IMG/VR virus record: IMGVR_UViG_3300032157_000216
Location: 1-63,785 of that record
Length of the DNA stretch: 63,785 nt
Origin: a virus
Taxonomy: Duplodnaviria > Caudoviricetes
Direction: 5' to 3' (one strand)
This document shows, one piece after another, positions 6,802 through 23,763 of the stretch. Position 1 is the stretch's first letter; each line of letters starts with the position of its first letter. A program made the position numbers and the translations under genes. The notes under the pieces were generated by a model. The model was given only the letters and a program-made list of their open reading frames with translations. It ran no database searches and was not told the origin of the DNA.

Positions 6802-6867
6802 CAGAATGCAGTTTTTTACGTTTGATTTTCAGTCAAATTTTATGTAATTTTTGCAGGATGCATTCTT
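6802..6867 (-). ncRNA. CAGCAA-scaffold RNA copy E1, carrying a Phe(GAA) anticodon stem-loop
   Basis: AAG-AATGCATC-CTGCAA...TTTGA-CTGAAAA-TCAAA...TGCATTCTG. Confidence 0.75.
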
Positions 6868-6878
6868 TAGAATGAAAA

Positions 6879-6961
6879 CAGAATTCTTGTAACAAGCCCT
6901 GTTACAGGCCTGCTTGGAGTTGAACCAAGTTTATCCATAGGATGTTGCTGGAAGAATTCTT
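6879..6961 (-). ncRNA. CAGCAA-scaffold RNA copy E2, carrying a T-arm plus hairpin
   Basis: AAG-AATTCTTC-CAGCAA...CTTGG-TTCAACT-CCAAG...GAATTCTG. Confidence 0.75.
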
Positions 6962-6967
6962 TAAATT

Positions 6968-7044
6968 TGGTACCCCACCTCGGATTCGAACCGAGAACCA
7001 ACAGATTTTAAGTCTGTCCGCACTACCAATTAGCGTAGCAGGGC
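6968..7044 (-). tRNA. tRNA-Leu(TAA), short variable loop
   Basis: ACAGA-CTTAAAA-TCTGT; 5-nt variable loop; CCA. Confidence 0.9.
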
Positions 7045-7053
7045 AAAATAAGT

Positions 7054-7224
7054 GTCGAATATATGATTTATTTTAGGTAGCTCCTGCAGTGGACTTTTAT
7101 CTACCCTCACATGGTGTTCCCTTGATTAAGATGCCCTTAATATGTTCGGGAGTTTAAATCAGCCACGACAGAAATTTCCATCGAGTTTAAATTGACGTCA
7201 TCTCGATCTTTCCATATATTCAAC
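7054..7224 (-). ncRNA. Putative structured ncRNA of unknown family
   Basis: Terminal stem GTTGAATATATG / CATATATTCGAC with internal hairpins; no ORF. Confidence 0.5.
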
Positions 7225-7233
7225 TGGAAACTG

Positions 7234-7869
7234 TTATACTCTACCTTTTTTCCAGCCAGGTAAAATATCTATATCTTTCTTTACTTTCTTATTTATAATA
7301 CCATCTGTAATCCACATAGTACCATATTGTGAACTTTTCTCTCCACAACTTTGTGGACGCGGACCGGACATTTTCTTTTTTGTTTCATCAGTATGTTTCT
7401 TACCTTTAAAACTTGGTTCCCACCAAATGCCGCCGTGTTCCTTATATTTTTCTTTAAATACCTCGACACCTTTTTTATTTTGATTCTGCATTCTTTCTTT
7501 ATACGTCTTCAGTTCATCTCCCTCTAGAGATTTAACCTTATCGCTGAATGCCTTACCACCCAGTGTTGCTCCGCGAACACTATCTTCACGAACAAAACCT
7601 CCACGACCTCCCGGCTTTAAGTTGTAAACTTCCGGGTTTTTAAGAAACTCCTCATTTACAACAACTCTTTCTTTTAAAAGAGCAGATTCATAATCATCAA
7701 AATATTCTAAAATCTCTTTTTTAAAATTCTCTCTACCATATTTCTTAATAGCGTATCGAATTCTTTTTCCAGAACCCAGATACATATTATCTGTGGTTTT
7801 TGCTTTATGGATCCCAATATAAATCTTATTATTAATAAGATTGGTAGTTTTATACAAGTAAATAATCAT
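7234..7869 (-). CDS. GIY-YIG free-standing homing endonuclease (Seg-like, NUMOD3-type repeat)
   Basis: IYLYKTTNLINNKIYIG, YLGSG, YN and KGKKHTDETKKKMS. Confidence 0.9.
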   Translation of the reverse strand: MIIYLYKTTNLINNKIYIGIHKAKTTDNMYLGSGKRIRYAIKKYGRENFKKEILEYFDDYESALLKERVVVNEEFLKNPEVYNLKPGGRGGFVREDSVRGATLGGKAFSDKVKSLEGDELKTYKERMQNQNKKGVEVFKEKYKEHGGIWWEPSFKGKKHTDETKKKMSGPRPQSCGEKSSQYGTMWITDGIINKKVKKDIDILPGWKKGRV

Positions 7870-7894
7870 ACTTGTATTTATCTTTTTCCCAATG

Positions 7895-7983
7895 AGGCCA
7901 GGGTTGGATTCAAACCAACGATGTATACCAAGGTAGTTTCCCGCTTTGCAGACGAGTGCATTCGATCGCTTTGCTACCTGGCC
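7895..7983 (-). tRNA. tRNA-Cys(GCA) with long variable arm, CCA not encoded
   Basis: GGCCAGG/CCTGGCC acceptor, T73, CTCGT-CTGCAAA-GCGGG, about 20-nt variable region. Confidence 0.8.
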
Positions 7984-7985
7984 AT

Positions 7986-8366
7986 TTACTCTACTTCTTC
8001 ACCCAATTCCTCTTTCAGTTTCTTAAACATCTTGAGTTTGGACTCTCTATCTTTCAATTCTTTCTTCATCTTACGTGTAAGAGCTGCATCTTCACGCTTT
8101 TTCTTTTCTTCTGCTTCTCTTATTTCTTCTGCTTTCGAAATAGCAAGATAATCTTTAATTGTCTTGGCAACAAATGCTTTTGTATCAACTGGACGTTCTA
8201 AAAGTTGAAAATTCAACTTCTGAGAAGCAAATTTTAAAGTTCTGAATTCTTCATCAGATACTTCTTCCCAATCTGTAATTGATTCGACGATCTTATGATA
8301 GTCATCATCGTATTCTCCGGAGCAGTAAAACTCACGCGAGATAATAATTGCTATCTTATGTGACAT
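7986..8366 (-). CDS. Hypothetical protein with coiled-coil C terminus
   Basis: 126 aa ORF with an AGGAG RBS. Confidence 0.75.
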   Translation of the reverse strand: MSHKIAIIISREFYCSGEYDDDYHKIVESITDWEEVSDEEFRTLKFASQKLNFQLLERPVDTKAFVAKTIKDYLAISKAEEIREAEEKKKREDAALTRKMKKELKDRESKLKMFKKLKEELGEEVE

Positions 8367-8385
8367 ACTATCTCCTTAATAAAGT

Positions 8386-8449
8386 CAGAGTGCGCTTTCT
8401 TTTCAAGATAATGGTTTGAAATTTTTAATTGTTTGCGGTAAACACTCTT
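8386..8449 (-). ncRNA. CAGCAA-scaffold RNA copy E3, carrying a degenerate hairpin
   Basis: AAG-AGTGTTTA-CCGCAA...TTTCAA-ACCATTATC-TTGAAA...GCACTCTG. Confidence 0.7.
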
Positions 8450-8457
8450 TAGAAACT

Positions 8458-8541
8458 TGGTGGAGATAGCTGGAATCGAACCAACCGGGCGTTAACAGGT
8501 GATTTACAGTCACCCCCTGCTCCATACAGGTCTACATCTCC
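8458..8541 (-). tRNA. tRNA-Tyr(GTA)
   Basis: GGTGA-CTGTAAA-TCACC; extended variable region; CCA. Confidence 0.85.
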
Positions 8542-8547
8542 AAATTC

Positions 8548-8678
8548 AGTCGGTAATACGTTACCAGCGTGGAAAAGCATACAACTTATTCCAATAATAG
8601 GGCAATGGCTACACGTGGAATTGACCATTGCGTGTCCACTCGGCCGGAATTACTTCCGCGCATTCATCCACGACGACT
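8548..8678 (-). ncRNA. Putative structured ncRNA abutting the tRNA-Lys 3' end
   Basis: Nested stems AGTCG/CGACT, CGTGGA/TCCACG, CGGAA-GTAA-TTCCG and GCAATGG/CCATTGC. Confidence 0.55.
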
Positions 8679-8752
8679 TGGTAGGGCTGCAAGGAATCAA
8701 ACCTTGGTAGATCGGTTAAAAGCCGACTATTCTATCATTGAATTACAACCCC
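8679..8752 (-). tRNA. tRNA-Lys(TTT)
   Basis: GTCGG-CTTTTAA-CCGAT; CCA. Confidence 0.9.
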
Positions 8753-8922
8753 GAAACTGACATTCTACGTTTGATTTCAATGTGAATATCATAATATGTC
8801 ATTCCCATTTCCTTCAAGTAGGAAAACTCATCAACTGCTTCATAATGATTCCACTTCACAAACTCTTCATAGAGTTTAAGTAGTTCATCACCCGATAACT
8901 CTCTTAGTTCTTTGTTTGTCAT
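8743..8922 (-). CDS. Small hypothetical protein
   Basis: Start moved to MTNKEL because the longer ORF runs through tRNA-Ser. Confidence 0.55.
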   Translation of the reverse strand: MTNKELRELSGDELLKLYEEFVKWNHYEAVDEFSYLKEMGMTYYDIHIEIKRRMSVSGL

Positions 8923-8935
8923 TATTACTTTTATT

Positions 8936-9026
8936 TGGCGGATGACCGGGGGGTCGAACCCCGAAACCTGTTCATCACAAGTCGACAGTTTAGCAAACTG
9001 CTCCAATACCATTATGGGAGTCATCC
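8936..9026 (-). tRNA. tRNA-Ser(GCT)
   Basis: GCAGT-TTGCTAA-ACTGT; long variable arm; G73; CCA. Confidence 0.9.
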
Positions 9027-9034
9027 AAAATTCT

Positions 9035-9167
9035 TGCTGCCCTAAGGAGGAATCGAACCTCGAGTGTATCAGACTCTGAACCTTACCTTGTACCTACTAA
9101 GTGTTCAGTACTCTTTCCCTGATACGTACGAAATACGTACTAACCCTTCAGCGGTTCACATGGGGCA
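9035..9167 (-). ncRNA. Enlarged tRNA-like RNA without a normal anticodon loop
   Basis: Acceptor-like ends, T-arm GAGG-TTCGATT-CCTC, extra hairpin, long interrupted central arm. Confidence 0.6.
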
Positions 9168-9173
9168 TATGTA

Positions 9174-9491
9174 TTATAACTTGTCCGGGTACTTAGAGTC
9201 AAGTACATCAACCGCATGAAACGGACTTGTTCCAATGTCAAGGACTTGAATATTTATAAATCCATTCTCCTCTGTGATCAAACTGTCCTTCGAATCGATT
9301 GATCCACGATACTTGTCATGACCTTTCTTATTCATAAGATCGCCTGTAGCAGGATCAATCGATCCCCATTCAGTCTTGACATTACCCATTGGTTCAACAG
9401 CATAGGTTTTTCCTGTACGAGTAGAATGAATGATGAAACGTCCCGTCTCATCTGTGTTCGTTAAGAATTTTTGTCTTACGTCTTGTCTCAT
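9174..9491 (-). CDS. Hypothetical protein
   Basis: 105 aa ORF with a GAAGGGA RBS. Confidence 0.75.
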   Translation of the reverse strand: MRQDVRQKFLTNTDETGRFIIHSTRTGKTYAVEPMGNVKTEWGSIDPATGDLMNKKGHDKYRGSIDSKDSLITEENGFINIQVLDIGTSPFHAVDVLDSKYPDKL

Positions 9492-9516
9492 ACCATTTCC
9501 CTTCTGTTAAAATCCC

Positions 9517-9614
9517 TGTTCTACAGGTCTTGAACCTGTTACAACGAAGCTTATCGTTACACTTACTTCGCATTAGCTGCATTCTCTGGGGGTAACGCTC
9601 CAGCAAGCAGAACA
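9517..9614 (-). ncRNA. tRNA-like RNA
   Basis: TGTTCT/AGAACA terminal stem, T-arm ACAGG-TTCAAGA-CCTGT and two non-canonical arms. Confidence 0.5.
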
Positions 9615-9618
9615 TTTC

Positions 9619-9695
9619 TGGCAAGGCCTCTCGGACTCGAACCGAGGCATTCATGGCTCAGAACCATGCCGCTCTTCCCCTTAAGCTACGACCCA
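9619..9695 (-). tRNA. tRNA-Gln(CTG), weak acceptor stem
   Basis: CATGG-TTCTGAG-CCATG; G73; CCA. Confidence 0.75.
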
Positions 9696-9701
9696 ATAAA
9701 C

Positions 9702-9777
9702 TGGAGCTCCTAGGGGGAATCGAACCCCTCCTTTACACCTTGAAAGGGTGTCGTCCTCACCAATAGACGATAGAAGC
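9702..9777 (-). tRNA. tRNA-Glu(TTC)
   Basis: ACACC-CTTTCAA-GGTGT; CCA. Confidence 0.9.
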
Positions 9778-9784
9778 ATATACA

Positions 9785-10537
9785 CTAATCTAGACTTCCT
9801 GTAAAGTCCTTCGGAACAAAATGTAGAAAGACTCCTAAAGCACTTTCAAATGAATTAGGCATTGGATCTCTCCAATGTGGATCACGGGTTCCTGAATACA
9901 ACACTGCATCACCTGCGTCAAGTTCAACTCGATTTACTATCTGTTCACGTTCGATAAACAATGGCCATTCTCTTAATGAAATATTTGGTTTACCTTGTAG
10001 CATCATTGAGATATTATATTCACATTGTGGTCGATCAGTATGCTTAGGTAATACAGCACCAACCACATAAGCTGCGGTGAATGCATAACTTGCCTTGATA
10101 GGTTTATCTACGATATAATTTATCATCGTTTCAACATTCTGATGAATCAATCTCATCAACGGTAAGTTATGAACCCACAATCGTTTAGATATATGTCCAA
10201 ATTTGTGTAATTCCGGTTTTAACCAAAAATGATGAGCCATCACAGTTTCAGCATACTCTTTAGTTATCAACTGTGGTATCCTTACCCAACCTTGATTTCT
10301 CATCTGTTCGCGTAACTCTTCCCATGAAAGTCGTCCTTCGGGATTTTGATGCCTGAGGATAAATTCTAATTTCCCTTCCTCAAATGGGGAAGGATACCAT
10401 CCTTGGTAATAAGAATCATAAATCCAAATAATTGGTTTAATTAAGGAATCACTAATGGCCTGGTAATCAACACGATGTGCATTTTTGACGTCGAGTGGAA
10501 CATCATCAGATGTCTGAATTATGTATGTACTCATCAT
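9785..10537 (-). CDS. 2OG-Fe(II) oxygenase
   Basis: LPKHTDRPQCEY, GDAVLYSG, PHWR and FLHF; start placed 5 nt after GATAAATA. Confidence 0.8.
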   Translation of the reverse strand: MMSTYIIQTSDDVPLDVKNAHRVDYQAISDSLIKPIIWIYDSYYQGWYPSPFEEGKLEFILRHQNPEGRLSWEELREQMRNQGWVRIPQLITKEYAETVMAHHFWLKPELHKFGHISKRLWVHNLPLMRLIHQNVETMINYIVDKPIKASYAFTAAYVVGAVLPKHTDRPQCEYNISMMLQGKPNISLREWPLFIEREQIVNRVELDAGDAVLYSGTRDPHWRDPMPNSFESALGVFLHFVPKDFTGSLD

Positions 10538-10551
10538 AATTCTATTTATCA

Positions 10552-10623
10552 TGGCAAGGGCGGTGAGAATCTAACTCACTCCGACAAGGTTCAAAGCCTT
10601 GCGTCGCTACAAGCGTCACCCCA
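10552..10623 (-). tRNA. tRNA-Gln(TTG), compact non-canonical fold
   Basis: GCAAGG-CTTTGAA-CCTTGT 6-bp stem; 3-nt D loop; CCA. Confidence 0.7.
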
Positions 10624-10629
10624 ATTGTT

Positions 10630-10707
10630 TGGTATTCCCATCGGGATTTGAACCCGACTTTCCACCTTGAGAGGGTAGCGTCCTAAATGCCACTAGACGA
10701 TGGGAAT
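10630..10707 (-). tRNA. tRNA-Glu(CTC)
   Basis: CTACC-CTCTCAA-GGTGG; CCA. Confidence 0.9.
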
Positions 10708-10711
10708 GTAA

Positions 10712-10784
10712 TGGACCCTCGTGAAGGACTCGAACCTTCGTAAGTCGATTTCGTAGACCGACCACCAAATCCATTGGACGAGAG
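10712..10784 (-). tRNA. tRNA-Arg(ACG), compact non-canonical fold
   Basis: GTCGGT-CTACGAA-ATCGAC 6-bp stem; no acceptor-D linker; CCA. Confidence 0.7.
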
Positions 10785-11031
10785 ATTATTCGTTATAATG
10801 TCTGCAGAGATTTCTTCTCTGCATCATAAATTCTCTTTCAAGGCGTTCGACATCTCCATCATTTTGTGGATTGCCGGAAGTGATATATCTTTCCAAATCA
10901 TTTCTTATGATCGGATCATTAAACACACTTTTAAAAAATTCAATTATACTTTTCAACATATAAATCTCCTCAGTGTTTATACTGAGTATTTACCGATTTA
11001 CATGCTGCACTGCAACAAAATAGGCAAATTT

Positions 11032-11105
11032 TGGTGATGAGTACAAGAATCGAACTTGTGAATCTACCTTATGAGAGTAGCGTTATACCACTTAACTAAA
11101 TCATC
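11032..11105 (-). tRNA. tRNA(CAT), Met or Ile2
   Basis: CTACT-CTCATAA-GGTAG; CCA. Confidence 0.85.
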
Positions 11106-11111
11106 AATGTT

Positions 11112-11186
11112 TGGAGCGGGATGCGAGGATCGAACTCGCAACTAAACCTTGGCAAGGTCTCGTGTTACCACTAGCACCAATCCCGC
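11112..11186 (-). tRNA. tRNA-Gly(GCC)
   Basis: AGACC-TTGCCAA-GGTTT; GCG acceptor; T73; CCA. Confidence 0.95.
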
Positions 11187-11197
11187 AATGTTCTCTA

Positions 11198-11226
11198 ACT
11201 ATACGACTTATATAGACACATGTCAA
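11198..11226 (-). promoter_or_regulatory. Sigma70-type promoter directly upstream of tRNA-Gly
   Basis: TTGACA-17 nt-TATAGT. Confidence 0.75.
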
Positions 11227-11232
11227 CTGATT

Positions 11233-11763
11233 TTAAATCTTTACAAACTGTTTATCTTCTTCTAATAAAATTGATTGATAATAATCACACTCGTGACCAT
11301 ATGTAATTAAATTCCTTTGTCTAAGAATACCATAAATCTTATCCCATGGTTCCCTGAACGCAAGTTTTAATACAAGCCTATCGCGTGGTTCAGGTTCGAC
11401 ACTATGAATCTTTGAACCAACATCAATCAAAGCACATTCATATGCATATGAACATCCATTTATACGAATGGTGGGCATCCAATCATCTATTAGATTGATA
11501 TTGATACCAACTATTCTATCTATGTCAATATGTTCCGGTAATCTTGTATTCTTATATTGAAATGAAAATCTAGGTAATACATTTAATCCATATAAACCCA
11601 TATCTTGTAAAACAGGATTAACTAATTCCTTACCACCGAATAATTTTAGCCAATAATGTATTTCGCTACCCGAAGTTTGATGATGACGGGCTTTTAGAAA
11701 ATTCTTAAAGAAATATTCTCTTAATATTTGTTTATTGGCGTAATAATTTATGAAACAAAACAT
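11233..11763 (-). CDS. Hypothetical protein, DSBH/2OG-Fe(II)-like
   Basis: LPEHID...IHSV...RLVLK. Confidence 0.55.
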   Translation of the reverse strand: MFCFINYYANKQILREYFFKNFLKARHHQTSGSEIHYWLKLFGGKELVNPVLQDMGLYGLNVLPRFSFQYKNTRLPEHIDIDRIVGININLIDDWMPTIRINGCSYAYECALIDVGSKIHSVEPEPRDRLVLKLAFREPWDKIYGILRQRNLITYGHECDYYQSILLEEDKQFVKI

Positions 11764-12208
11764 CACTAATCTCTTCAAATGTCTTATCAAAGACACTTAT
11801 TTTAAATAATAACCTGTCAGATGAAACATTCAATACAGCATGTTCTACCTGAGTGTTTAATAAACCTGTTTTATAATAACAATCAAATTCTCTAAAATTT
11901 ATAACATCTAAATTATCTGATAAAAGAAAATTAAAACTACAAAGTGTTCCTCTATCTTTATGAAAACCTAGTGAAAATCCTGGCCTCTGAATATAAAATC
12001 TTGGTCTACAGTCTTTCAAATCAAATAATTTTTGAAAATGATCAGATAGTTCTTGAGCATATCCTGTATTGACTCTTTTTATTGCCCAACCATCAAACAC
12101 ATCGCCATTGAGAGGATCGACAAAAGGTTCATAACCTTCCATATCAGACGCTTGAGTTAATAATAACTCTTTATCAAAATCAAAATCAAATTCAATAATT
12201 GGCAACAT
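11732..12208 (-). CDS. Hypothetical protein, DSBH/2OG-Fe(II)-like, paralogue of its neighbour
   Basis: LGFHKD...EHAV...RLLFK. Confidence 0.55.
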   Translation of the reverse strand: MLPIIEFDFDFDKELLLTQASDMEGYEPFVDPLNGDVFDGWAIKRVNTGYAQELSDHFQKLFDLKDCRPRFYIQRPGFSLGFHKDRGTLCSFNFLLSDNLDVINFREFDCYYKTGLLNTQVEHAVLNVSSDRLLFKISVFDKTFEEISDVLFHKLLRQ

Positions 12209-12220
12209 ATGATATTTATC

Positions 12221-12290
12221 TGGAGGTAAGTAAGGATCGCGAATCCTCTCGCCGGGTGCGACCCAGCTCGTCCGCTGTCAACGACTTACC
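12221..12290 (-). ncRNA. Non-canonical tRNA-like RNA (nominal anticodon CGC)
   Basis: GGTAAGT/ACTTACC acceptor, mini D arm, GCTGG-GTCGCAC-CCGGC, T-loop TTCGCGA, TCCA end; lacks G3:U70. Confidence 0.55.
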
Positions 12291-12296
12291 ATAATA

Positions 12297-12389
12297 TGGC
12301 GGGTGAAGGGTCGTGTCGATCGCCTACCGGCTCATCACCGATACACTAGTTTTCAAGACTAAGACTGGGGCCGCCCAGCATCATCACCC
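12297..12389 (-). tRNA. tRNA-Ser(TGA) with 8/4-type, tRNA-Sec-like body
   Basis: 8-bp acceptor, D arm GCTGGG-CGGC-CCCAGT, TTAGT-CTTGAAA-ACTAG, long V arm, bulged 4-bp T stem, G73, CCA. Confidence 0.75.
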
Positions 12390-12445
12390 ATAAAAAGGAA
12401 GATCATAAAGCCATGCGACATCACGGCGCCTCTATGACCTATTAT

Positions 12446-12522
12446 TGGTACCTGGATAGAGAATCGAACTCTACTAATCCCATTTGTAAGAAGGGTGGCT
12501 TCACCAGCTGCACTCTCCAGGC
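12446..12522 (-). tRNA. tRNA-Val(TAC)
   Basis: Loop CTTACAA; CCA. Confidence 0.85.
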
Positions 12523-12532
12523 ATTGTTTGTT

Positions 12533-12602
12533 TACGCATTGCAGGATTCGAACCTGCGTCCCCACCGGGTCTGGTGGCGTTCTACCTTTGAACTAAATCC
12601 GT
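12533..12602 (-). ncRNA. tRNA-like RNA with a 6-nt loop in place of the anticodon loop
   Basis: Canonical D and T arms; CCACC-AGACCC-GGTGG; no CCA. Confidence 0.6.
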
Positions 12603-12684
12603 CTCTATATAAGACTGTCCCATACTATCAGGCGTGGAAGTGATACCTTCTCGCAGAGGGGAATATTAACACAGTCTTAGTGAA

Positions 12685-12760
12685 TGGTACCGATGACTGG
12701 GTTTGAACCAGCGACGCACAACTTTTCAAGCTGCCGCTCTACCAACTGAGCTACATCGGC
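12685..12760 (-). tRNA. tRNA-Phe(GAA)
   Basis: GCAGC-TTGAAAA-GTTGT; CCA. Confidence 0.95.
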
Positions 12761-12768
12761 ATAAATTT

Positions 12769-12845
12769 TGGTGGACACATGAGGGAATCGAACCCTCGAC
12801 ATCCTACTTGCAAGGCAGGCGTTCTCCCAACTGAACTAATGGCCC
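12769..12845 (-). tRNA. tRNA-Ala(TGC)
   Basis: CCTGC-CTTGCAA-GTAGG; G3:U70; CCA. Confidence 0.9.
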
Positions 12846-12995
12846 ATATCTAAAAAATCTACTAACTATTGCCACCTGTCCCCGGATCTATAATAATCGT
12901 CCCCGGGTTTGGACTTACACCGTGCTAACAGGCTATTTATCGGCAGAACTTTAACCATTAACCTGAGCTATAGTAGCAGACCCAGCGCCTGGTGG

Positions 12996-13559
12996 TCAAC
13001 CTGGCTTGTTTGCTGTTCTTTTTCGTTCTCTTATCCAAAGTGCAGCAATCCATTTTTCGCCTTTGGTAACAAGTCTGCCATGATGTGCAGTTGAACTTTT
13101 TATCTTCAAATCTGGATTGCTATAATCAAAGAAGAGAAATTTACCTTCTTCGGGTTCAACCCAAACATTGAGCAATGGAAAATCTGTAGCACCACCTTCA
13201 AAATTATCATTAAGATAAATTATTATTGTTGCTATTCTATTACCATTTTCCTCACACGCCTGCAGAGCTTCGAAACTTTTGAAAAAATCAGAATGAAGTT
13301 TAAATTCATCACCCATTTTATATCGGATAACTTCTAAGTCTTCAAATCGATCTTTATCTATTTCTAATATAGAACTGATTCTATCACAAATTTTTGATAC
13401 AAGTAAATTATTACTATCAGTTCTAGCACTCCATGATCCTCTCATTCCTTTCGGAATAGCGCCATATCCAGAGTAACTTAATAACGTGGAGTCTCTTAGC
13501 TTGTCTTTATATTCTTCAATTAAAGACTGACATTCTTCATGTGTAAGAAAATTCATCAT
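12996..13559 (-). CDS. Prolyl 4-hydroxylase-like 2OG-Fe(II) oxygenase
   Basis: FLTHEEC, RY..GDEFKLHSD, RIATIIIYLND.FEGGATDFP and H.GRLVTKGEKW. Confidence 0.9.
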   Translation of the reverse strand: MMNFLTHEECQSLIEEYKDKLRDSTLLSYSGYGAIPKGMRGSWSARTDSNNLLVSKICDRISSILEIDKDRFEDLEVIRYKMGDEFKLHSDFFKSFEALQACEENGNRIATIIIYLNDNFEGGATDFPLLNVWVEPEEGKFLFFDYSNPDLKIKSSTAHHGRLVTKGEKWIAALWIRERKRTANKPG

Positions 13560-13608
13560 TGTCTTAACAAGAGGAGATTCTCGATATAGTAAACTCTGAC
13601 ATTAAATG

Positions 13609-14181: not shown

Positions 14182-14188
14182 AGGCAAA

Positions 14189-14365
14189 TCAATAAGTTGA
14201 TACTGGAGTTACCGGTGCAGTCGGTGCTGGACCTAAATTGATATTTGATGTTCTATCAAGATGTACAACTTTAAATGCAGGAGGAAGTGTATTTTTTGGC
14301 ACTTCTTTCTCTTTCATATTTCTTTCTATTTCTCTCTTGGCAATCTCATTATATTGAATATCCAT
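14189..14365 (-). CDS. 58 aa protein with a Pro-rich C terminus
   Basis: Manual translation MDIQYNEIAKRE...NLGPAPTAPVTPVSTY; fills the gap between two genes; AAGGAAG RBS. Confidence 0.65.
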   Translation of the reverse strand: MDIQYNEIAKREIERNMKEKEVPKNTLPPAFKVVHLDRTSNINLGPAPTAPVTPVSTY

Positions 14366-14366
14366 T

Positions 14367-15746: not shown

Positions 15747-15782
15747 AATAATCCCTGTTTAAGGTATTTATCTATATATTTT

Positions 15783-15859: not shown

Positions 15860-15868
15860 ATAATAGTT

Positions 15869-16036: not shown

Positions 16037-16074
16037 TTTGAAATTTGGAGCCGGCACGTGGATTCACACGTGGA

Positions 16075-17052: not shown

Positions 17053-17079
17053 ACTGCTATTTATCAGTATTTTATTGTT

Positions 17080-17155
17080 TGGACGCTCGGGTGAGAATTT
17101 AACTCACACAATACCGTTTTGCAGACGGCCCCGTTAAACATTCCGGCACCGAGCG
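17080..17155 (-). tRNA. tRNA-Cys(GCA)
   Basis: GCCGT-CTGCAAA-ACGGT; T73; CCA. Confidence 0.85.
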
Positions 17156-17161
17156 ATTAAT

Positions 17162-17235
17162 TGGGGTGAGGGTGGGTTACGATCCCACGCCCGTCGTTTC
17201 ACAGACGACAATTCTGCCATTAAACTAACCTCACC
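17162..17235 (-). tRNA. tRNA-His(GTG)
   Basis: GTCGT-CTGTGAA-ACGAC; G-1:C73; CCA. Confidence 0.9.
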
Positions 17236-17242
17236 ATAATCT

Positions 17243-18016
17243 TTATTGATAATTTTCTGGTTGCATTATCCAGATATCATCTGTTAACCTTCTTGGATCT
17301 TCAAACCAACCATATGGCATCTTGAAATCTCCGTTAAGTCCCCAACCGGTTCCCCAAGAGTTTCTAACCCATACATATGGTTCTTTAACATCTCTTTCAT
17401 CATAACCAACTGCGGTTACAGCATGGCCGCCAACAATATAATCTTCGTCTGTTGGTAATCTAACCCATCCTGTTGTCGCAACTTCATCGCTCATAAAATA
17501 TTCAGGGACTGAGAATCCAAACACAACAGGTATTCTCAATGCCAATGCTGTCTTTATATCAGTGATGGTATCTAATCTTTGATAAGATCTAATCATCGGA
17601 GGTATAAGTTTAGCATTTTTATACGCTCTTGTCGACGGTTTCCTTGCAAATCTTTCAATGATGTATGGCCAAACTGCCTCAGTTGCTACGCCATACTTAC
17701 AAATACCTTTGATGACATCACGAATATATGCACCATCATCGTACTTTGTATTATTTTCTATTTTTCGAGCAGTATAATACGCCATCAACCTAGAATATTG
17801 AACACCTGTGCCCAATATTATTTCTAATGCTGTGGTTGCTGCATTTCCGGTGCAGGAACCTAACTGACCTTGATCTTCAACTTGATTATTTACACTCAAT
17901 GGAGCAATATAATCAGGAAGTATTACCGCTGAAGAGGCAGTAAAGAGCTTATCTCTATGATCTGCTACCTCCGGTTTCCATTTAAATACACGTGGTTTAA
18001 GCATGATGGCCTCCAT
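17243..18016 (-). CDS. Papain-family (C1A) cysteine peptidase
   Basis: DQGQLGSCTG, GGHAV and RNSWG..WG..G. Confidence 0.9.
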   Translation of the reverse strand: MEAIMLKPRVFKWKPEVADHRDKLFTASSAVILPDYIAPLSVNNQVEDQGQLGSCTGNAATTALEIILGTGVQYSRLMAYYTARKIENNTKYDDGAYIRDVIKGICKYGVATEAVWPYIIERFARKPSTRAYKNAKLIPPMIRSYQRLDTITDIKTALALRIPVVFGFSVPEYFMSDEVATTGWVRLPTDEDYIVGGHAVTAVGYDERDVKEPYVWVRNSWGTGWGLNGDFKMPYGWFEDPRRLTDDIWIMQPENYQ

Positions 18017-18052
18017 ATAAATTATTATTTATATGAATGACCTAAAATAAAA

Positions 18053-18156
18053 CAGGTTGTTGTTGCTAACCCGGGACTCGAACCCACGCAACACCCCCAG
18101 CGGGACAGGCACGAAAAGTTTTGGCTCGTATATTTTTGTTTGCTGTAATCAACCTT
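18053..18156 (-). ncRNA. CAGCAA-scaffold RNA copy E4, carrying hairpins and a T-loop module
   Basis: AAG-GTTGATTA-CAGCAA...TGTTGC-GT-GGG-TTCGAGT-CCC...GCAACA-A-CAACCTG. Confidence 0.7.
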
Positions 18157-18167
18157 CAGAAACTAAA

Positions 18168-18287
18168 CAGGATACCTTTTTAGATAGGCTATCAACCTAT
18201 TGCCAAACCATTTGGCGTACAACGCAGAAGCGTAGTGTTGGAATTGAACCAACTAGTCTTATTAAGACTTTTGCTGCATGTATCCTT
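18168..18287 (-). ncRNA. CAGCAA-scaffold RNA copy E5, carrying a circularly permuted tRNA-Ile(GAT)
   Basis: Inside the AGGATAC/GTATCCT stem the order is T arm, acceptor 3' strand, TTCT, acceptor 5' strand, D arm, anticodon arm. Confidence 0.75.
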
Positions 18288-18292
18288 CAAAC

Positions 18293-18369
18293 TGGTACCC
18301 CCGGAGAGATTCGAACTCCCATCCAACACGTTCTAAGCGTGTCCGCACTACCAATTAGCGTACGGGGGC
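18293..18369 (-). tRNA. tRNA-Leu(TAG), short variable loop
   Basis: ACACG-CTTAGAA-CGTGT; CCA. Confidence 0.9.
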
Positions 18370-18534
18370 AAAATAATTTTCGGAATAGCGGCGATGTAAG
18401 GTCACATACCTAGTCACATAATCCTGTTGGTCTGTTGTGTGGCCACACAACATTCCACGTTTGTTTCGAAGTAGGTACCCGTCTACCAGCCCATGTGGAC
18501 CCAATAGAACATCCTCGTATACTTCAAATTATAT

Positions 18535-18610
18535 TGGCCCGACCTCTCTGTTACGATCAGAGTTCTCATGTTCTTCAGACATGCGTGAGGACCACCTTCA
18601 CCAAGGTCGG
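18535..18610 (-). tRNA. tRNA-Phe(GAA), divergent body
   Basis: CATGT-CTGAAGA-ACATG; T-loop ATCGTAA; G73; CCA. Confidence 0.8.
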
Positions 18611-18613
18611 ATA

Positions 18614-18687
18614 TGCATACCATCGAGGATTCGAACCCCGACTTTAAGGTTTTGGAGACCCAACGACTGCCGTTATCTTAATGGTAT
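18614..18687 (-). tRNA. tRNA-Trp(CCA), CCA end not encoded
   Basis: Loop CTCCAAA; ATACCAT/ATGGTAT acceptor; G73. Confidence 0.8.
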
Positions 18688-19311
18688 ATTTTTCTTTATA
18701 TAATCCCAACTCAACTGAGTTTTATCTAGGATCATAATCATTATTTTATTTTGTTCTATTACTCTTTCAATCTTTTCTTTATCTAAAATGCGAACATACG
18801 GATTCTTCGGATCTAGATATAGATCATAATCTATTAAATAAAAATCAGGATAATATCTTCTCTTTTGATTATTTAAATCAAAATAAAGCAATGGTGATGG
18901 TCTATTCCATCTAACTTTATTTTTATCTAAATCAATCGCTAATTCATATTCCCAGTTTGATTCAAATCTAACACCATTATACAAAATTCTTTTAGATGCT
19001 GTATAACGATTTTCCATCTTACTCTGCATTATAGACGATATTCTTTCTTTACATTCCAAAGTATGAGGAGTTCTATGTGGAATATATTCACCAATTCGAA
19101 TCTTTTCTTTAAAAGTTAAAGATCCCTGCATTATACTTTCATCAGTAAACTTAGTTTTACCTTTTTTAGATGATATTTTTCCCTTCATCCCATTCACATA
19201 ATTTCTATTTGGATTTATCGGGCAACACCTTTCGTGATTTCTATGACTATTCTCATTATGACATTCTTTATCACAAAATCTACATGATAACATTAACTTC
19301 TCCGGTAGCAC
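18673..19311 (-). CDS. Putative free-standing PD-(D/E)xK (TnsA-like) endonuclease
   Basis: N-terminal CxxC...H...C; FESNWE, YYPDFYL and LYLDPK. Confidence 0.75.
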   Translation of the reverse strand: MLPEKLMLSCRFCDKECHNENSHRNHERCCPINPNRNYVNGMKGKISSKKGKTKFTDESIMQGSLTFKEKIRIGEYIPHRTPHTLECKERISSIMQSKMENRYTASKRILYNGVRFESNWEYELAIDLDKNKVRWNRPSPLLYFDLNNQKRRYYPDFYLIDYDLYLDPKNPYVRILDKEKIERVIEQNKIMIMILDKTQLSWDYIKKNIPLR

Positions 19312-19421
19312 AGTTATTTATCATAGACCGCTGTGCTACCGAGATATATTTGAATCAGGCTTCACACCTAAATTGTCTGTTGCCTAGTGCATTATTCAGG
19401 CTTACAGATAACCCCTCGATT

Positions 19422-19497
19422 TGGCTCCGCAAGAACGATTCGAACGCTCCTCACTTGGTTAACAGCCAAGGGTACTCACCGAGAATACGATTGCGGA
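19422..19497 (-). tRNA. tRNA-Asn(GTT)
   Basis: CTTGG-CTGTTAA-CCAAG; G73; CCA. Confidence 0.9.
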
Positions 19498-19508
19498 ATT
19501 GAATTATC

Positions 19509-19574
19509 TGATGTATATAGGAATCGAACCTAGACTTGGCTTTAGTTCAGCTTTGCCGTCCACGGCATACATCA
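19509..19574 (-). ncRNA. Miniature tRNA-like RNA or tRNA pseudogene
   Basis: TGATGTAT/ATACATCA terminal stem and TAGG-TTCGATT-CCTA T arm; degenerate anticodon arm; no CCA. Confidence 0.5.
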
Positions 19575-19578
19575 TATT

Positions 19579-19652
19579 TGGTAGGTCTTGAAGGAGTCAA
19601 ACCTTCGTAGGCCGCCTATCAAGCAGCTATTCTATCATTGAATTAAAGACCC
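19579..19652 (-). tRNA. tRNA-Ile(GAT)
   Basis: GCTGC-TTGATAG-GCGGC; CCA. Confidence 0.9.
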
Positions 19653-19743
19653 AAATTGGTGCCGAGCCAGGACTTAATGCATTACAGAAAGGGCCTGGCC
19701 TACCGGCGATCTGCTGAATGCAGTAACCTTTCTTGCTAAATTT

Positions 19744-19819
19744 TGGAGCAGGTGGCGGGAATCGAACCCGCGCCTTTAGTTTGGAAGACTATGATGCTAC
19801 CATTAGACACCACACCTGC
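19744..19819 (-). tRNA. tRNA-Gly(TCC)
   Basis: Loop CTTCCAA; T73; CCA. Confidence 0.9.
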
Positions 19820-19945
19820 ATATTCGTGCCTGGACTTAGTAACGCGCCTAACAGACTTGCGCGACTTACGGACGAGTATACATGTACAAGGTCTACTCGT
19901 CTATCTTTTGTTCTTACCAAGCCCTTTCGAGCTTGGATTTTTCAT

Positions 19946-20974
19946 TTAGACCGGAGCACCGATCCAAATCATCAGGCCCATGCCCTTGGTAAGCTTACGG
20001 TTAACCGACGTCGATTGGACGTAGATTTCATAGTTACCATGCTGGCCCGGAGCAACCTTAACATCACCGGAATGCGGCAAGCCGAGAAGATCACGCGCAC
20101 CATATCCGCTGTAAACAGCACCAGTCGTCTTATCACGAACGGCAATCTGTTTATAGCCTTGAACAGTTTCGGTCTTCTTCAGTTCATAAAATGCACAACC
20201 CTTAACAAAGGTAACGCCTTGATCATTCACGAAGTCACGAATCTGGCAACCGTCCCACTGAGCATCCACTTCATACACATCCACCTGCTTAGAAATATCA
20301 ACCAGAGTGGCTTTTACTTCCTTCAGGCTGACATTACTCATGTCAGTATAGAATTTGTCAGTGCTCCTTACACCAGTAGCACGAGCTGCATAGAAGCCCT
20401 TGAACGCACTCTTGGTAGCAGCGGTAGAAACTTGAACACCACGTTCAGATTGTTCCCATTCCTGAATGTTACCATCAGGAATACCATATTGGGTAAGCGA
20501 ACGCTTATAACCCTTCGGTACACGGAACACAAACGTCCAACGATCAGTTGCTTGAAGTTCCTTGATCATCTTTGCAACGGATGAACCCGAATGCTTACAG
20601 CTTGCATTTTCCTCACCATCAGTGGTGGTAAACACAACAAAAGAAACATCAGGATCATCGGCATCCGGAACAGCTTTCAATTGCTCAACCAAGTCACCCA
20701 CCGCATCAAACAACGGAGTTCCGTGGCCCCTGGCGCTATAACTCGATTCGGTAATCGGCTTCAACGCAGTGACAGACGAATTCTTGATAACGGTACGTAC
20801 CTGATTGGTATTACCATATCCAAGTTCAACAACCGATACAATAGTATCGATGCCATGATTGGCTGCTTCCTCTTTGATCGACACAATGTTATCATTGTAG
20901 TCACGTGCGGCGTGACGTGCAATAGTAGCCATCGAGCCGGAGTGATCTCGTGCAAAACCAATGTAGTTCTTCAT
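19946..20974 (-). CDS. von Willebrand factor A (vWA) domain protein
   Basis: MIDAS motif DHSGSM, GTPLFDAV and TDGEEN; GAAAGG RBS. Confidence 0.85.
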   Translation of the reverse strand: MKNYIGFARDHSGSMATIARHAARDYNDNIVSIKEEAANHGIDTIVSVVELGYGNTNQVRTVIKNSSVTALKPITESSYSARGHGTPLFDAVGDLVEQLKAVPDADDPDVSFVVFTTTDGEENASCKHSGSSVAKMIKELQATDRWTFVFRVPKGYKRSLTQYGIPDGNIQEWEQSERGVQVSTAATKSAFKGFYAARATGVRSTDKFYTDMSNVSLKEVKATLVDISKQVDVYEVDAQWDGCQIRDFVNDQGVTFVKGCAFYELKKTETVQGYKQIAVRDKTTGAVYSGYGARDLLGLPHSGDVKVAPGQHGNYEIYVQSTSVNRKLTKGMGLMIWIGAPV

Positions 20975-21006
20975 GTATACCTTTCTGTGTAGTAATGTAC
21001 TCTCTT

Positions 21007-21035
21007 ACTATACAATAAGTACATCACTTTGTCAA
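21007..21035 (-). promoter_or_regulatory. Sigma70-type promoter of the vWA gene
   Basis: TTGACA-17 nt-TATAGT. Confidence 0.75.
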
Positions 21036-21547
21036 CTGGTGTCGCTAATTCGTTTTAATGCTTTTCGCCCCTTGCCTTTATTCTTAGCACCAAAAGTTGG
21101 TGTTTGTGAATGGCAATTTGGACACAATAATCTAACGTTAGATGGCAAATTATTATTTGAAAATCCATTGATATGATCTAAATGAAGACTCAATGGTTCT
21201 CCCGACCAATCTGATATTCCACATTTCATACATTTGTATCCAAATCTTTCAATTAAGACTTGTTTTATTGTCGAATTTTCTACTAATTCGCCTTTATCAA
21301 ATTTTTCTGATCTTCGTTTTTTACAAGTATCTATTCTTTGTTCTACATTCTTAGACACCAATAATGATTTTTCTGTCCTAATCTTATTAGTCTTTCTATT
21401 AGACTCTAATAGTCTAGAGGATTGTTTAGCCGAAATAGATTTCTTTAGTTTATCTTTATCTGTCCATGTTCTACTATTAGCACATTTTCTACAACAATAA
21501 ACCCCAGGCTTATTATGTAAATTTGGACATTTAGGACATTGTTTCAT
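21032..21547 (-). CDS. HNH homing endonuclease
   Basis: CMKCG, LHLDHING..NN...N.RLLCPNCH. Confidence 0.9.
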   Translation of the reverse strand: MKQCPKCPNLHNKPGVYCCRKCANSRTWTDKDKLKKSISAKQSSRLLESNRKTNKIRTEKSLLVSKNVEQRIDTCKKRRSEKFDKGELVENSTIKQVLIERFGYKCMKCGISDWSGEPLSLHLDHINGFSNNNLPSNVRLLCPNCHSQTPTFGAKNKGKGRKALKRISDTS

Positions 21548-21601
21548 AATCGAACTCCGATAAAAAGTTAATACACTATTTATCTAAGTTCGATTAACAT
21601 T

Positions 21602-21722
21602 TGGTGTCGCTGGACGGAGTCGAACGCGTCATCACTTCCTTATGATGGAATGATTTTGATTGCTGTATGTATCCTTGTCAGGATCACTTTCTTTAAGTGT
21701 GTTACCCTTACACTACAGCGAC
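21602..21722 (-). tRNA. tRNA(CAT) interrupted by a 46-nt permuted CAGCAA-scaffold copy (E6)
   Basis: Removing 21651-21696 gives a 75-nt cloverleaf with CTTCC-ATCATAA-GGAAG and CCA. Confidence 0.75.
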
Positions 21723-21824
21723 ATTATTGGAGCACCTATCTAATATAGTTAATAGAGACTAGGGAAGGAGCATTGATTGAGAGGGCCTATCTAATATAGA
21801 TTAGAGATCGATAGGCTCAAATTT

Positions 21825-21900
21825 TGGTGGGTTGCCAGGGAGTCAAACCCTGCTGAGTCTCCTTAAGAGGGAGGTACATCTGTCGCTCTGTCAACAACCC
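21825..21900 (-). tRNA. tRNA-Lys(CTT)
   Basis: CTCC-CTCTTAA-GGAG; CCA. Confidence 0.85.
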
Positions 21901-21904
21901 GAAA

Positions 21905-21979
21905 TGGTATCGCGTACGGGAATCGGACCCGTCTACACTGGTTGAAAGCCAGTTGACCTCACCAAAAGTCAAACGCGAT
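21905..21979 (-). tRNA. tRNA-Glu(TTC), second copy
   Basis: ACTGG-CTTTCAA-CCAGT; CCA. Confidence 0.85.
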
Positions 21980-21985
21980 GTAATG

Positions 21986-22060
21986 TGGATCACCCAGCTG
22001 GGTTCGAACCAGCATCCTGAGGGCCAAAACCTCATGTCCTACCAATTAGACGACAGGTGA
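21986..22060 (-). tRNA. tRNA-Gln(TTG), third copy
   Basis: TGAGG-TTTTGGC-CCTCA; CCA. Confidence 0.8.
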
Positions 22061-22067
22061 ATAAATT

Positions 22068-22141
22068 TGGTCCCTCCGCCAAGAATTGAACTTGGAATTA
22101 GCGATTATCGGTCGCTTAGTATACCATTTACTTAAAGAGGG
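22068..22141 (-). tRNA. tRNA-Ile(GAT), second copy (C33)
   Basis: AGCGA-CCGATAA-TCGCT; CCA. Confidence 0.85.
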
Positions 22142-22146
22142 AAATC

Positions 22147-22220
22147 TGGTCAGTCTAGCAAGAATCGAACTTGCGCTTCCACGCTCCGAAGGTGGGATGA
22201 TACCATTTCATCATAGACTG
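22147..22220 (-). tRNA. tRNA-Pro(CGG)
   Basis: Loop TTCGGAG; C1:G72; A73; CCA. Confidence 0.85.
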
Positions 22221-22322
22221 AAATAAAAACTGTTAGGTTCGACTTTCATCACATACCATCGTGTTATACTTACGTAGAGCGAACCGGGATAGTATCGACT
22301 TTATAATTACTCTAACAAAACT

Positions 22323-22396
22323 TGGTCAGGGTAGGTGGAATCGAACCACCGTCGTCCGGTTCCAGGCCGGGGAGTCTACCATTGATTTACACCCTG
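22323..22396 (-). tRNA. tRNA-Pro(TGG) (C33, A37)
   Basis: CCGG-CCTGGAA-CCGG; CCA. Confidence 0.85.
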
Positions 22397-22415
22397 AATA
22401 TAGATAAATATCATT

Positions 22416-23033
22416 ATGAACTTATCTGAAATACGATCACATCCTGATCAAAATCCAAAACTTAAAACTATCGACGTTATAAAACAAAATGAAAAAATAT
22501 ATGGCGATAAACTATTTGTTCATTTTAGTCGAATTGATAAACTTGGAATAAATCCAAATTATGGCTGGGAATTTACACCAGCTGGTCTCTATGCTAGATC
22601 AGTTGAAGAAGCACTTCATGATCTACAAAGTAATTATTTCTATGATCAATATAAATTTGCAACACTTCTAACATTCAGTTCATCTGCAAAAATACTCAAC
22701 CTTTCATCTACAAATCAAAATACATTAAACAATCTTATGAGATTAGCTTATGATTTCTATAAGAAAAAAACGAATATTACTGATAAAAATGCTAAACCAT
22801 TCTTGGATATGAATGTCAGAGAAACATGGCATAAAATTGCAGGAATCTTTATGGATCTCTGGGACAAAGATCAACGAAGTCCTTTCTACTGGAATGCAAT
22901 CGTTCGTAAATTAGGATATAATGTCTTAATGGATAATGACGGAATCATTCATGAAGATCACACCACTCAAGTTGTATTCTTAACACCAGACTCTTATAAA
23001 GTTATCACACAAGAAATAATTAGAAGAAAATAA
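22416..23033 (+). CDS. Hypothetical protein, antisense to the tRNA cluster
   Basis: 205 aa ORF starting 5 nt after GATAAATA. Confidence 0.7.
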   Translation: MNLSEIRSHPDQNPKLKTIDVIKQNEKIYGDKLFVHFSRIDKLGINPNYGWEFTPAGLYARSVEEALHDLQSNYFYDQYKFATLLTFSSSAKILNLSSTNQNTLNNLMRLAYDFYKKKTNITDKNAKPFLDMNVRETWHKIAGIFMDLWDKDQRSPFYWNAIVRKLGYNVLMDNDGIIHEDHTTQVVFLTPDSYKVITQEIIRRK

Positions 23034-23035
23034 AT

Positions 23036-23109
23036 TGGAGCCCCATGACCGAATCAAACGATCGTCCTCTGACTACAAAACAGTTATTCTATCACTGAAC
23101 TAATAGGGC
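23036..23109 (-). tRNA. tRNA-Thr(TGT)
   Basis: Loop TTTGTAG; CCA. Confidence 0.85.
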
Positions 23110-23115
23110 ATTATT

Positions 23116-23523
23116 CTAACACCGACCGAAAATGTCGGATTTTATTTCTTTTTCTAACATTCTCAATTTCGAATGTTTTGATAAAGCTTCTTTAACAATC
23201 GGAGTGTTCATTACAGTTTCATGAATTTCGTTATGTCTTTTTTTATTTTCTAATTCTAATGGAGTACCATACATAATCTCATCCCATGACATTCCAAATT
23301 CTTTTTCTACTATAACATTTGATTCAGACTCGGAGAAACCTAAATTACCTAATTCACCCAATCTTCTCAAACATTTTAATGATCGACTAAATGTAATGTT
23401 ACTTATATCGAGTTCTCTCCTTAATTCCATTAATTTCTGTAATTCTACATTATTCTCAATCTTTTTATGTAAAAAAATTACTCTCTTCCTTAATTTAAGA
23501 ATCTTCTTTTCTTTTCTTTGCAT
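23116..23523 (-). CDS. Hypothetical protein
   Basis: Start at MQRKEK preceded by GGAG. Confidence 0.6.
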   Translation of the reverse strand: MQRKEKKILKLRKRVIFLHKKIENNVELQKLMELRRELDISNITFSRSLKCLRRLGELGNLGFSESESNVIVEKEFGMSWDEIMYGTPLELENKKRHNEIHETVMNTPIVKEALSKHSKLRMLEKEIKSDIFGRC

Positions 23524-23560
23524 ACACTTCTCCGTATTGCAAATATTTAGCAAACTAAAA

Positions 23561-23617
23561 CAGAGTACACATTTGGCTTCATTTACAGTGAATTTTTGGA
23601 TTGCTGAAGGTACTCTT
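23561..23617 (-). ncRNA. CAGCAA-scaffold RNA copy E7, carrying a Tyr(GTA) anticodon stem-loop
   Basis: AAG-AGTACCTT-CAGCAA...TTCA-CTGTAAA-TGAA...GTACTCTG. Confidence 0.8.
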
Positions 23618-23623
23618 TAAACT

Positions 23624-23699
23624 TGGCGCCGCTGAAGGGAATCAAACCCTCCTAAATCCGCTAGACAGGCGGTTGCACTCATCAGAATGCGACAACGGC
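23624..23699 (-). tRNA. tRNA-Asp(GTC) (T37)
   Basis: CCGC-CTGTCTA-GCGG; G73; CCA. Confidence 0.85.
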
Positions 23700-23708
23700 A
23701 TGATAAAA

Positions 23709-23763
23709 CAGTGTTCTTATTTTCAATTAAAAGTTGAATTTTGAATTTGCTGAACGAACACTT
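23709..23763 (-). ncRNA. CAGCAA-scaffold RNA copy E8, carrying a Lys(TTT) anticodon stem-loop
   Basis: AAG-TGTTCGTT-CAGCAA...TTCAA-CTTTTAA-TTGAA...GAACACTG. Confidence 0.8.

Follow-up and report, generated by a model that had tools for sequence, protein, structure and literature searches.

Anticodon-arm-like hairpins on a conserved RNA scaffold point to a modular family of tRNA-part mimics in the tRNA arrays of related phages

The window analysed here is a whole stretch of 63.8 kb (63,785 nucleotides), the IMG/VR virus contig IMGVR_UViG_3300032157_000216, with a CheckV completeness of 19%. Its portal was of the T4 type (PF07230, 337 bits), the carrier thus being a bacteriophage, and the closest named phage by portal was the jumbo Pseudomonas phage PA5oct, with 58% amino-acid identity. 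Four public runs were listed as matching the window, all of them DNA runs from soil or groundwater metagenomes. A tRNA array, in which ARAGORN made 29 calls, ran on the minus strand from about 6.6 to 24.4 kb. On the same strand we found seven copies of a repeated element (53–136 nt), and in three of them, E1, E7 and E8, the inner hairpins looked like the anticodon arms of tRNA-Phe, tRNA-Tyr and tRNA-Lys, respectively (Table 1).

These three hairpins had been described in the initial annotation as free-standing canonical anticodon stem-loops, with no acceptor, D or T arm. They are indeed present when the minus strand is read, the plus strand carrying their reverse complements. Neither a D nor a T arm was found at E1, E7 or E8, and no tRNA was called there by ARAGORN or by the tRNA model RF00005 (E ≤ 1). 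None of the three has the cloverleaf, detectable by one of these two tools, that we took as the mark of a canonical tRNA; each is an anticodon-arm-like hairpin only. As such the hairpins have all the features of an anticodon stem-loop, namely a stem (here of 5, 4 and 5 bp) closing a 7-nt loop in which pyrimidine-32 and U33 precede the triplet and purine-37 follows it. The term “free-standing” did not hold, because every hairpin is enclosed by a closing stem of 6–7 bp with conserved flanks.

Over the whole window, CTNNNAA hairpins with a stem of at least 4 bp numbered 23, versus 3.4 ± 1.7 in 100 shuffles. By comparison of coordinates, 13 of them coincided with the anticodon arm of a tRNA or tRNA-like gene, and the other 10 did not. 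Taken alone, the three hairpins are not significant. Their significance comes from the slot that all three share in a repeated scaffold, together with the relatives, in which CU-NNN-AA loops are common. A reading of E1, E7 and E8 as intrinsic terminators or sigma-70 promoters was rejected, as no such site overlapped them among the matches listed (the 60 strongest of 77 promoter-like ones and 15 terminator-like ones).

The scaffold consists, in order, of AAG, a covarying closing stem of 5–8 bp, an invariant U, the motif C(A/C/U)GCAA, an interior that varies between members, the second strand of the stem (3') and CUG(U/A). It is flanked by UUU(C/U)UA before AAG and by a U-rich tail after UG(U/A). 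The closing stem starts at the G of AAG and ends in the C of CUG. Counted from this G, the invariant U is nucleotide 8, and C(A/C/U)GCAA spans nucleotides 10–15. An interior-blind descriptor, run over about 327 kb, gave 54 unique hits, of which nine were dropped and 45 were kept as members (29 short and 16 long). The nine hits, obtained with the loosened descriptor, were dismissed as false on account of stems of 5–6 bp, the lack of a U-rich upstream flank and the lack of a match to the covariance model R1 (see below). The descriptor required AAG, CUG, C10, C13 and A14, the invariance of which is in part by construction. U8, which was not imposed, was invariant in 45/45 members. The nucleotide after CUG was A in 23 members, U in 21 and C in one. 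Counted from the 5' G, U8 and A14 of the scaffold bear the same numbers as U8 and A14 of tRNA, where both are invariant; the agreement may go back to a tRNA ancestor or be coincidental.

R1, built from ten short members, gave 44 matches across the window and its relatives. Ten related jumbo-phage records carried the family: the window, G001–G004, the record of L025, G021 and the complete genomes G007–G009. The last three are all of the complete genomes of the clade (3/3), 362–385 kb long and with direct terminal repeats. No R1 match was found in PA5oct, Xanthomonas phage XacN1, the records of L006 and L007, G010 and G011, or in 21 of the 22 more distant portal relatives that were searched in addition, two complete genomes (480–519 kb) among them; in large records only 150 first-look candidates were scored, and absences there are soft. 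When 42 distinct sequences were aligned by fitting to the model, the closing stem was paired in 99.2% of the cells, as compared with 12–47% in a control in which the partner was slid by 1–3 columns. Changes on both sides were seen in four of the six closing-stem pairs and three of the four inner-stem pairs. No description of this family was found in Rfam 15 or in the literature searched; the supplementary tables of PMC10690425 (csRNA) and PMC7919456 (Class I loci) might list candidates that overlap with it. Judged by its sequences, the object is a clade-specific modular family of putative tRNA-part mimics on a conserved scaffold.

A lack of CU-NNN-AA enrichment in the homologue loops was a refuting condition set in the initial annotation, and the loops proved to be enriched. 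With 4 bp as the minimum for the stem, such a loop was found in 18 of the 29 unique short members, while 1000 dinucleotide shuffles of the interiors gave a count of 0.23 ± 0.48, with a maximum of three. The loops were CUUUUAA (six members), CUGUAAA (five), CUUGUAA (four) and, once each, CUGAAAA, CUCCAAA and CUUCCAA; two long members had CUCAUAA. Seven triplets thus share a single frame, and stems and loops are combined in 13 distinct ways. Among short members, frame and stem stayed constant and the triplet varied (GUA, UUU, UGU, GAA, UCC and CCA). The frame itself was also preferred: 20 of the interior 7-nt loops were in the CU..AA frame and 14 in T-loop-like frames, and any other frame occurred at most twice. 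Around the kept loop the stems compensated (TTCAA/TTGAA, TTACA/TGTAA and TCAAA/TTTGA). Between E1 and its positional counterpart in G009, stem and frame were identical at 14/14 positions and the triplet at 0/3 (GAA versus UUU). In the positional group of E8, two triplets alternated. GUA was found unchanged in five unique sequences, from five records, so that the triplet is neither drawn freely nor fixed. These patterns support the view that selection acts on the loops as it does on anticodon loops.

Other interiors held other parts. The 9-nt loop ACCAUUAUC of window copy E2 was present in four unique members, E2 itself and three from relatives. Three short members without an anticodon-like loop (L120 13764, L124 2652 and L126 12253) carried a D-loop-like AAUUGGU, which fits the idea that any tRNA arm may be cargo. 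In long members the interiors had T-arm look-alikes of the GGTTCRANTCC type, directly followed by a hairpin equivalent to an acceptor stem sealed by a loop of 3–6 nt. Some long members added “UA” and a textbook D-arm. The most complete arrangement was examined by cutting the window copy 18285–18168 at its acceptor cap and rejoining it in tRNA order, upon which ARAGORN called a tRNA-Ile(gat) in three of four trimmed versions. Its counterpart in L005, re-permuted in the same way, gave a tRNA-Met(cat) in one of four versions, and re-permutation of four other members gave no ARAGORN call. No member has a free acceptor end, and therefore none of these RNAs should be chargeable.

In several respects this design is like that of the YrlA Y RNAs (RF02553). 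As presented in the cited part of PMC4201824, these are modular noncoding RNAs that form a stem between their 5' and 3' ends and carry a permuted tRNA mimic composed of a T-arm, a loop-sealed acceptor and a D-arm. A tRNA-like domain of the YrlA type was found in long members only (Table 1). By the model of the Y RNA that links Ro60 to PNPase, the scaffold could be a handle for a protein in the role of Ro60 and the tRNA-like module could recruit a second, tRNA-binding factor, the RNAs serving to retarget an enzyme and not to titrate it. We consider such a tether unlikely, though worth keeping in view. Besides sharing the two-module design, long members of two relatives contained partial RF02553 matches; their scores of 39.5 and 35.8 bits lie far under the gathering cut-off of 69 bits, and no family member in the window matched RF02553 at E ≤ 1. 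TROVE/Ro60 (PF05731) was found in 0/5 records, including the three complete genomes G007–G009, with the control genomes positive; a Ro60 encoded by the host is possible. The Ro60-binding motif GNCGAAN0-1G occurred in one of the 45 members, and there at position 38, away from the 5' end. In contrast to YrlA, the phage family has another conserved handle and sits inside tRNA arrays, and most of its members carry an anticodon arm alone, which YrlA lacks.

The position of the elements bears on a second alternative. Four of the seven window copies began 8–11 nt after the CCA or 3' end of a tRNA, and two followed another copy in tandem. Across the family, a CCA lay within 16 nt upstream in 25/45 members, the elements stopped a few nucleotides before the next tRNA or ribosome-binding site, and the flanks were U-rich. 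All of this would suit structured spacers that punctuate a mixed tRNA/mRNA transcript, by guiding RNase E, RNase P or RNase Z or by protecting its ends, with the tRNA-like parts as mere landing sites for nucleases. However, a spacer needs neither a canonical CU-NNN-AA loop with a kept frame and a swapped triplet, nor a motif that is invariant and always equally far from the 5' G, and we hold this explanation to be somewhat less probable than the tether.

A further likeness concerns the scaffold. The sole non-tRNA Rfam family matched by short members was that of the dictyostelid Class I RNAs (RF01414). In about 139 kb searched, 12 RF01414 matches were listed, all of them family members, with 23.7–38.1 bits. 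The gathering cut-off of 41.5 bits was unreached, the best match having 31.3 bits in the window and 38.1 bits in a relative. According to the cited part of PMC7919456, Class I RNAs start with AAG, and their 5' G pairs with the C of the terminal CUG(U). They are described there with a covarying closing stem of roughly 6 bp, a variable interior, a length of about 55–60 nt and a conserved 11-nt motif that lies directly 3' of the 5' stem strand and ends in CAGCAA. Apart from the motif, the short phage members share these features. With a one-nt deletion, the phage motif aligns to this 11-nt motif, in which T3, C6, C9, A10 and A11 are near-invariant. The two families differ at the 3' end, which in the phages is CUGA as often as CUGU. 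They also differ in setting: Class I RNAs have their own promoter (DUSE, ~60 nt upstream), whereas the phage elements abut tRNA genes and lack one of their own (DUSE itself was not searched for). In the same part of PMC7919456, Class I RNAs are described as confined to Dictyostelia, and the carrier here is a bacteriophage, not an amoeba. The origin of the resemblance is uncertain, and may lie in chance combined with an A-T-rich composition, in convergence or in transfer. A relationship by transfer between amoebae of the soil, the bacteria that serve them as prey or symbionts, and phages has, in our view, a small probability, close to that of the spacers. If it were true, the phage family would be the first relatives of Class I RNAs outside Dictyostelia, and would offer a functional idea for these abundant developmental noncoding RNAs, that of a protein-binding frame presenting tRNA-like hairpins. 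To our knowledge, the mechanism of Class I RNAs has been open since 2004.

Two remaining explanations appear very improbable. That the members are working minimal or split tRNAs, the short ones as armless decoders and the long ones as permuted genes whose maturation would require RNase P, CCA addition and RtcB, agrees with the 7 bp acceptor (one mismatch) of the permuted window copy, with RtcB in the complete relatives and with M. smegmatis YrlA, a substrate of RNase P to which CCA is added (cited part of PMC4201824), but the short members are without T arm, D arm and encoded CCA (the inspected window tRNAs encode it), the acceptor caps have just 3–6 nt, and full-length Lys(UUU), Tyr and Phe tRNAs are already encoded by the phage. 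That the hairpins are functionless, either decayed tRNA genes or chance products of A-T-rich DNA, agrees with their thermodynamic weakness and with the roughly 3.4 of them expected in the window by chance, and the arrays contain homing endonucleases that could break tRNA genes, but against it stand a scaffold kept in ten records with compensatory changes, an enrichment of about 77-fold over shuffles, and stems unrelated to the anticodon stems of the phage's own tRNA-Lys, tRNA-Tyr and tRNA-Phe.

We propose instead that the hairpins are anticodon-arm mimics on a conserved small-RNA scaffold, most likely competitive ligands of proteins that read tRNA parts, a reading in which we place about even confidence. 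Given their place between tRNA genes, on the same strand as these, the elements would most likely share a transcript with the tRNAs and be freed from it by the end-processing that frees the tRNAs. The scaffold would be a frame for interchangeable parts: the anticodon arm alone in short members, E1, E7 and E8 among them, and in long members a T-arm with sealed acceptor, the same with a D-arm, or a whole permuted tRNA body. Such mimics may compete for readers of tRNA parts, foremost the anticodon-directed defence nucleases of the host and in second place tRNA-modifying enzymes, and the triplet would set which protein is engaged. A role as decoys against tRNA-targeting defence nucleases is plausible. 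It is consistent with the non-chargeable design, with the kept frame and swapped triplets, with the RNA ligase RtcB, encoded by all three complete relatives (426–431 bits), and with the literature, which names the two triplets that alternate in the E8 group and describes the depletion of tRNA-Tyr by PtuAB. The profile of T4 Rnl1 (PF09511) had no match anywhere, control genomes included, and is hence uninformative.

The tRNase biology cited in the initial annotation agrees with the literature: in the cited part of PMC11555353, depletion of tRNA-Tyr is ascribed to retron-Eco7 PtuAB, and a phage tRNA-Lys acts against PrrC170. Its further suggestion, that the RNAs supply replacement loops, found nothing in the analysis in its favour. 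Phage tRNAs are described as countering PARIS, PtuAB and PrrC in the cited parts of PMC11464382, PMC12409363 and PMC11555353. Like the mimics, such full-length tRNAs reside in tRNA-rich regions of phages, and the anticodons Lys UUU, Thr UGU and Tyr GUA occur in both. They differ in being chargeable and in replacing the cut host tRNA, whereas the family RNAs would be non-chargeable and could act by binding alone. In the UUU mimic of G009 (L126 6875–6938), the loop is followed by the stem UCAAA, and the resulting hexamer UAAUCA equals the AriB site reported, in the part of the literature cited, in the tRNA-Lys(UUU) of E. coli.

Several points weigh against competitive binding by the mimics. The inner stems are weak, with 4–5 bp that are almost all A-U, and the fold z-scores of E1, E7 and E8 are no stronger than -0.7 to -1.9. 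Their minimum-energy folds never draw the hairpin exactly as first written; those of E1 and E8 pair the stem out of register, around a 6-nt loop, and in E7 the hairpin is replaced by a different pairing. An anticodon-like loop was absent from 11 of the 29 short members, one orthologue has a G at the U33 position (CGGUAAA) and another has a 6-nt loop. The unique sequences are related, not independent, and form about six positional groups, and the covariation counts rest on a model-fitted alignment. Processing and stability of the elements are inferred, the matching public runs being of DNA. Finally, contacts other than those with the anticodon arm seem to be required by AriB (cited part of PMC12409363), and therefore a mimic made of the arm only may not bind such nucleases. 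As to the different pairing of E7, which joins UUCA of the motif to the 3' strand of the inner stem, we rejected it as the conserved structure, since it is lost where the inner stem changes (L004 8104).

The rest of the array was also inspected. RF00005 added tRNAs that ARAGORN had missed, including one of Lys(UUU) type and one Asp(GUC), and two genes were called by ARAGORN as “tRNA-???” with 2-nt anticodons (Table 1). Small open reading frames (ORFs) are interspersed in the array, among them genes of endonuclease type (GIY-YIG/NUMOD3, HNH and T5orf172) and 2OG-Fe(II) oxygenases. A mid-array ORF of 342 aa had no Pfam match; its relatives occur in other tRNA-rich phages, namely Caulobacter phage Cr30 (50% identity), Mycobacterium phage Myrna and Streptomyces phages. 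The N-terminus of its product, DHSGS...TDG, presumably resembles a vWA metal site, on our own reading. Two G + C-rich intergenic stretches, by eye full of inverted repeats, matched no Rfam family at E ≤ 1 and may be further structured RNAs. The arrays of relatives contained other noncoding RNAs as well: GOLLD RNA (212 and 199 bits), a tmRNA in permuted form (122 bits), a match resembling RNase P RNA (86 bits, under the cut-off of 100) and a group I intron (77 bits). Megablast of 8 kb of the tRNA array against named phages gave no match, and no related loci were found when they were sought via the ORF 9785–10552.

Table 1 Coordinates of the family members, their inner hairpins and other features in the window and in related records.
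Feature	Coordinates	Strand	Description
Anticodon-arm look-alike of E1	6821-6837	-	TTTGA-CTGAAAA-TCAAA; 5 bp stem; loop CUGAAAA (Phe-like GAA)
Anticodon-arm look-alike of E7	23578-23592	-	TTCA-CTGTAAA-TGAA; 4 bp stem; loop CUGUAAA (Tyr-like GUA)
Anticodon-arm look-alike of E8	23722-23738	-	TTCAA-CTTTTAA-TTGAA; 5 bp stem; loop CUUUUAA (Lys-like UUU)
E1, 64 nt	6802-6865	-	G1 and closing stem of 7 bp, motif UCCUGCAA, inner hairpin, CUG; R1 62.2 bits, RF01414 25.3 bits; 9 nt before tRNA-Gln
Long member, 81 nt	6879-6959	-	T-arm look-alike CTTGG-TTCAACT-CCAAG, directly followed by sealed 7 bp stem; in tandem upstream of E1, just after tRNA-Leu(UAA)
E2, 62 nt	8386-8447	-	Inner hairpin with conserved 9-nt loop ACCAUUAUC, not anticodon-like; R1 62.8 bits; between tRNA-Tyr (before) and an ORF (after)
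Long member, 118 nt	18168-18285	-	Circularly permuted, acceptor-sealed tRNA-Ile-like body; order T-arm, sealed acceptor, D-arm, anticodon arm (18184-18200, loop UUGAUAG)
Long member, 102 nt	18053-18154	-	T-loop-like hairpin (TTCGAGT); in tandem after 18168-18285
E7, 55 nt	23561-23615	-	Inner hairpin 23578-23592; RF01414 31.3 bits, R1 69.1 bits; after tRNA-Asp
E8, 53 nt	23709-23761	-	Inner hairpin 23722-23738; RF01414 23.8 bits, R1 50.7 bits; before tRNA-Asp
tRNA-Asp (GUC)	23627-23699	-	Between E8 and E7; RF00005 36.7 bits; missed by ARAGORN
tRNAs added by RF00005	8682-8752; 12449-12522; 19582-19652; 21910-21978; 23039-23109; 23627-23699	-	Missed by ARAGORN
ARAGORN “tRNA-???” genes	12533-12602; 24178-24262		2-nt anticodons
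ORF, 342 aa	19946-20974	-	Mid-array
G + C-rich intergenic stretches	~12230-12440; 12860-13000	-	In the array
YrlA-type tRNA-like domains	L022 1443-1324; L122 10820-10932; L126 18194-18059; window 18285-18168		Long members only
RtcB RNA ligase	G007 212810-213937; G008 352957-354102; G009 357384-358511		Complete relatives
Other noncoding RNAs in relatives' arrays	L123 10815-11233; L126 9065-9531; L126 517-908; L123 8529-8864; L005 8857-9066		
Descriptor hits dropped as false	window 19732; L121 4921, 15066; L123 4892; L124 6828; two in L006; two in L007		

Bacterial defences that cut tRNAs, such as PrrC, PARIS, retron-Eco7 PtuAB and Schlafen-type nucleases, are a fast-growing field. The sole phage RNA answer to them of which we know is the replacement tRNA. 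If the decoy role is true, the displayed anticodon arms and sealed tRNA bodies of this family would be a second answer of phages, by RNA decoys, and would bring with them a natural, reusable design of handle and cargo.

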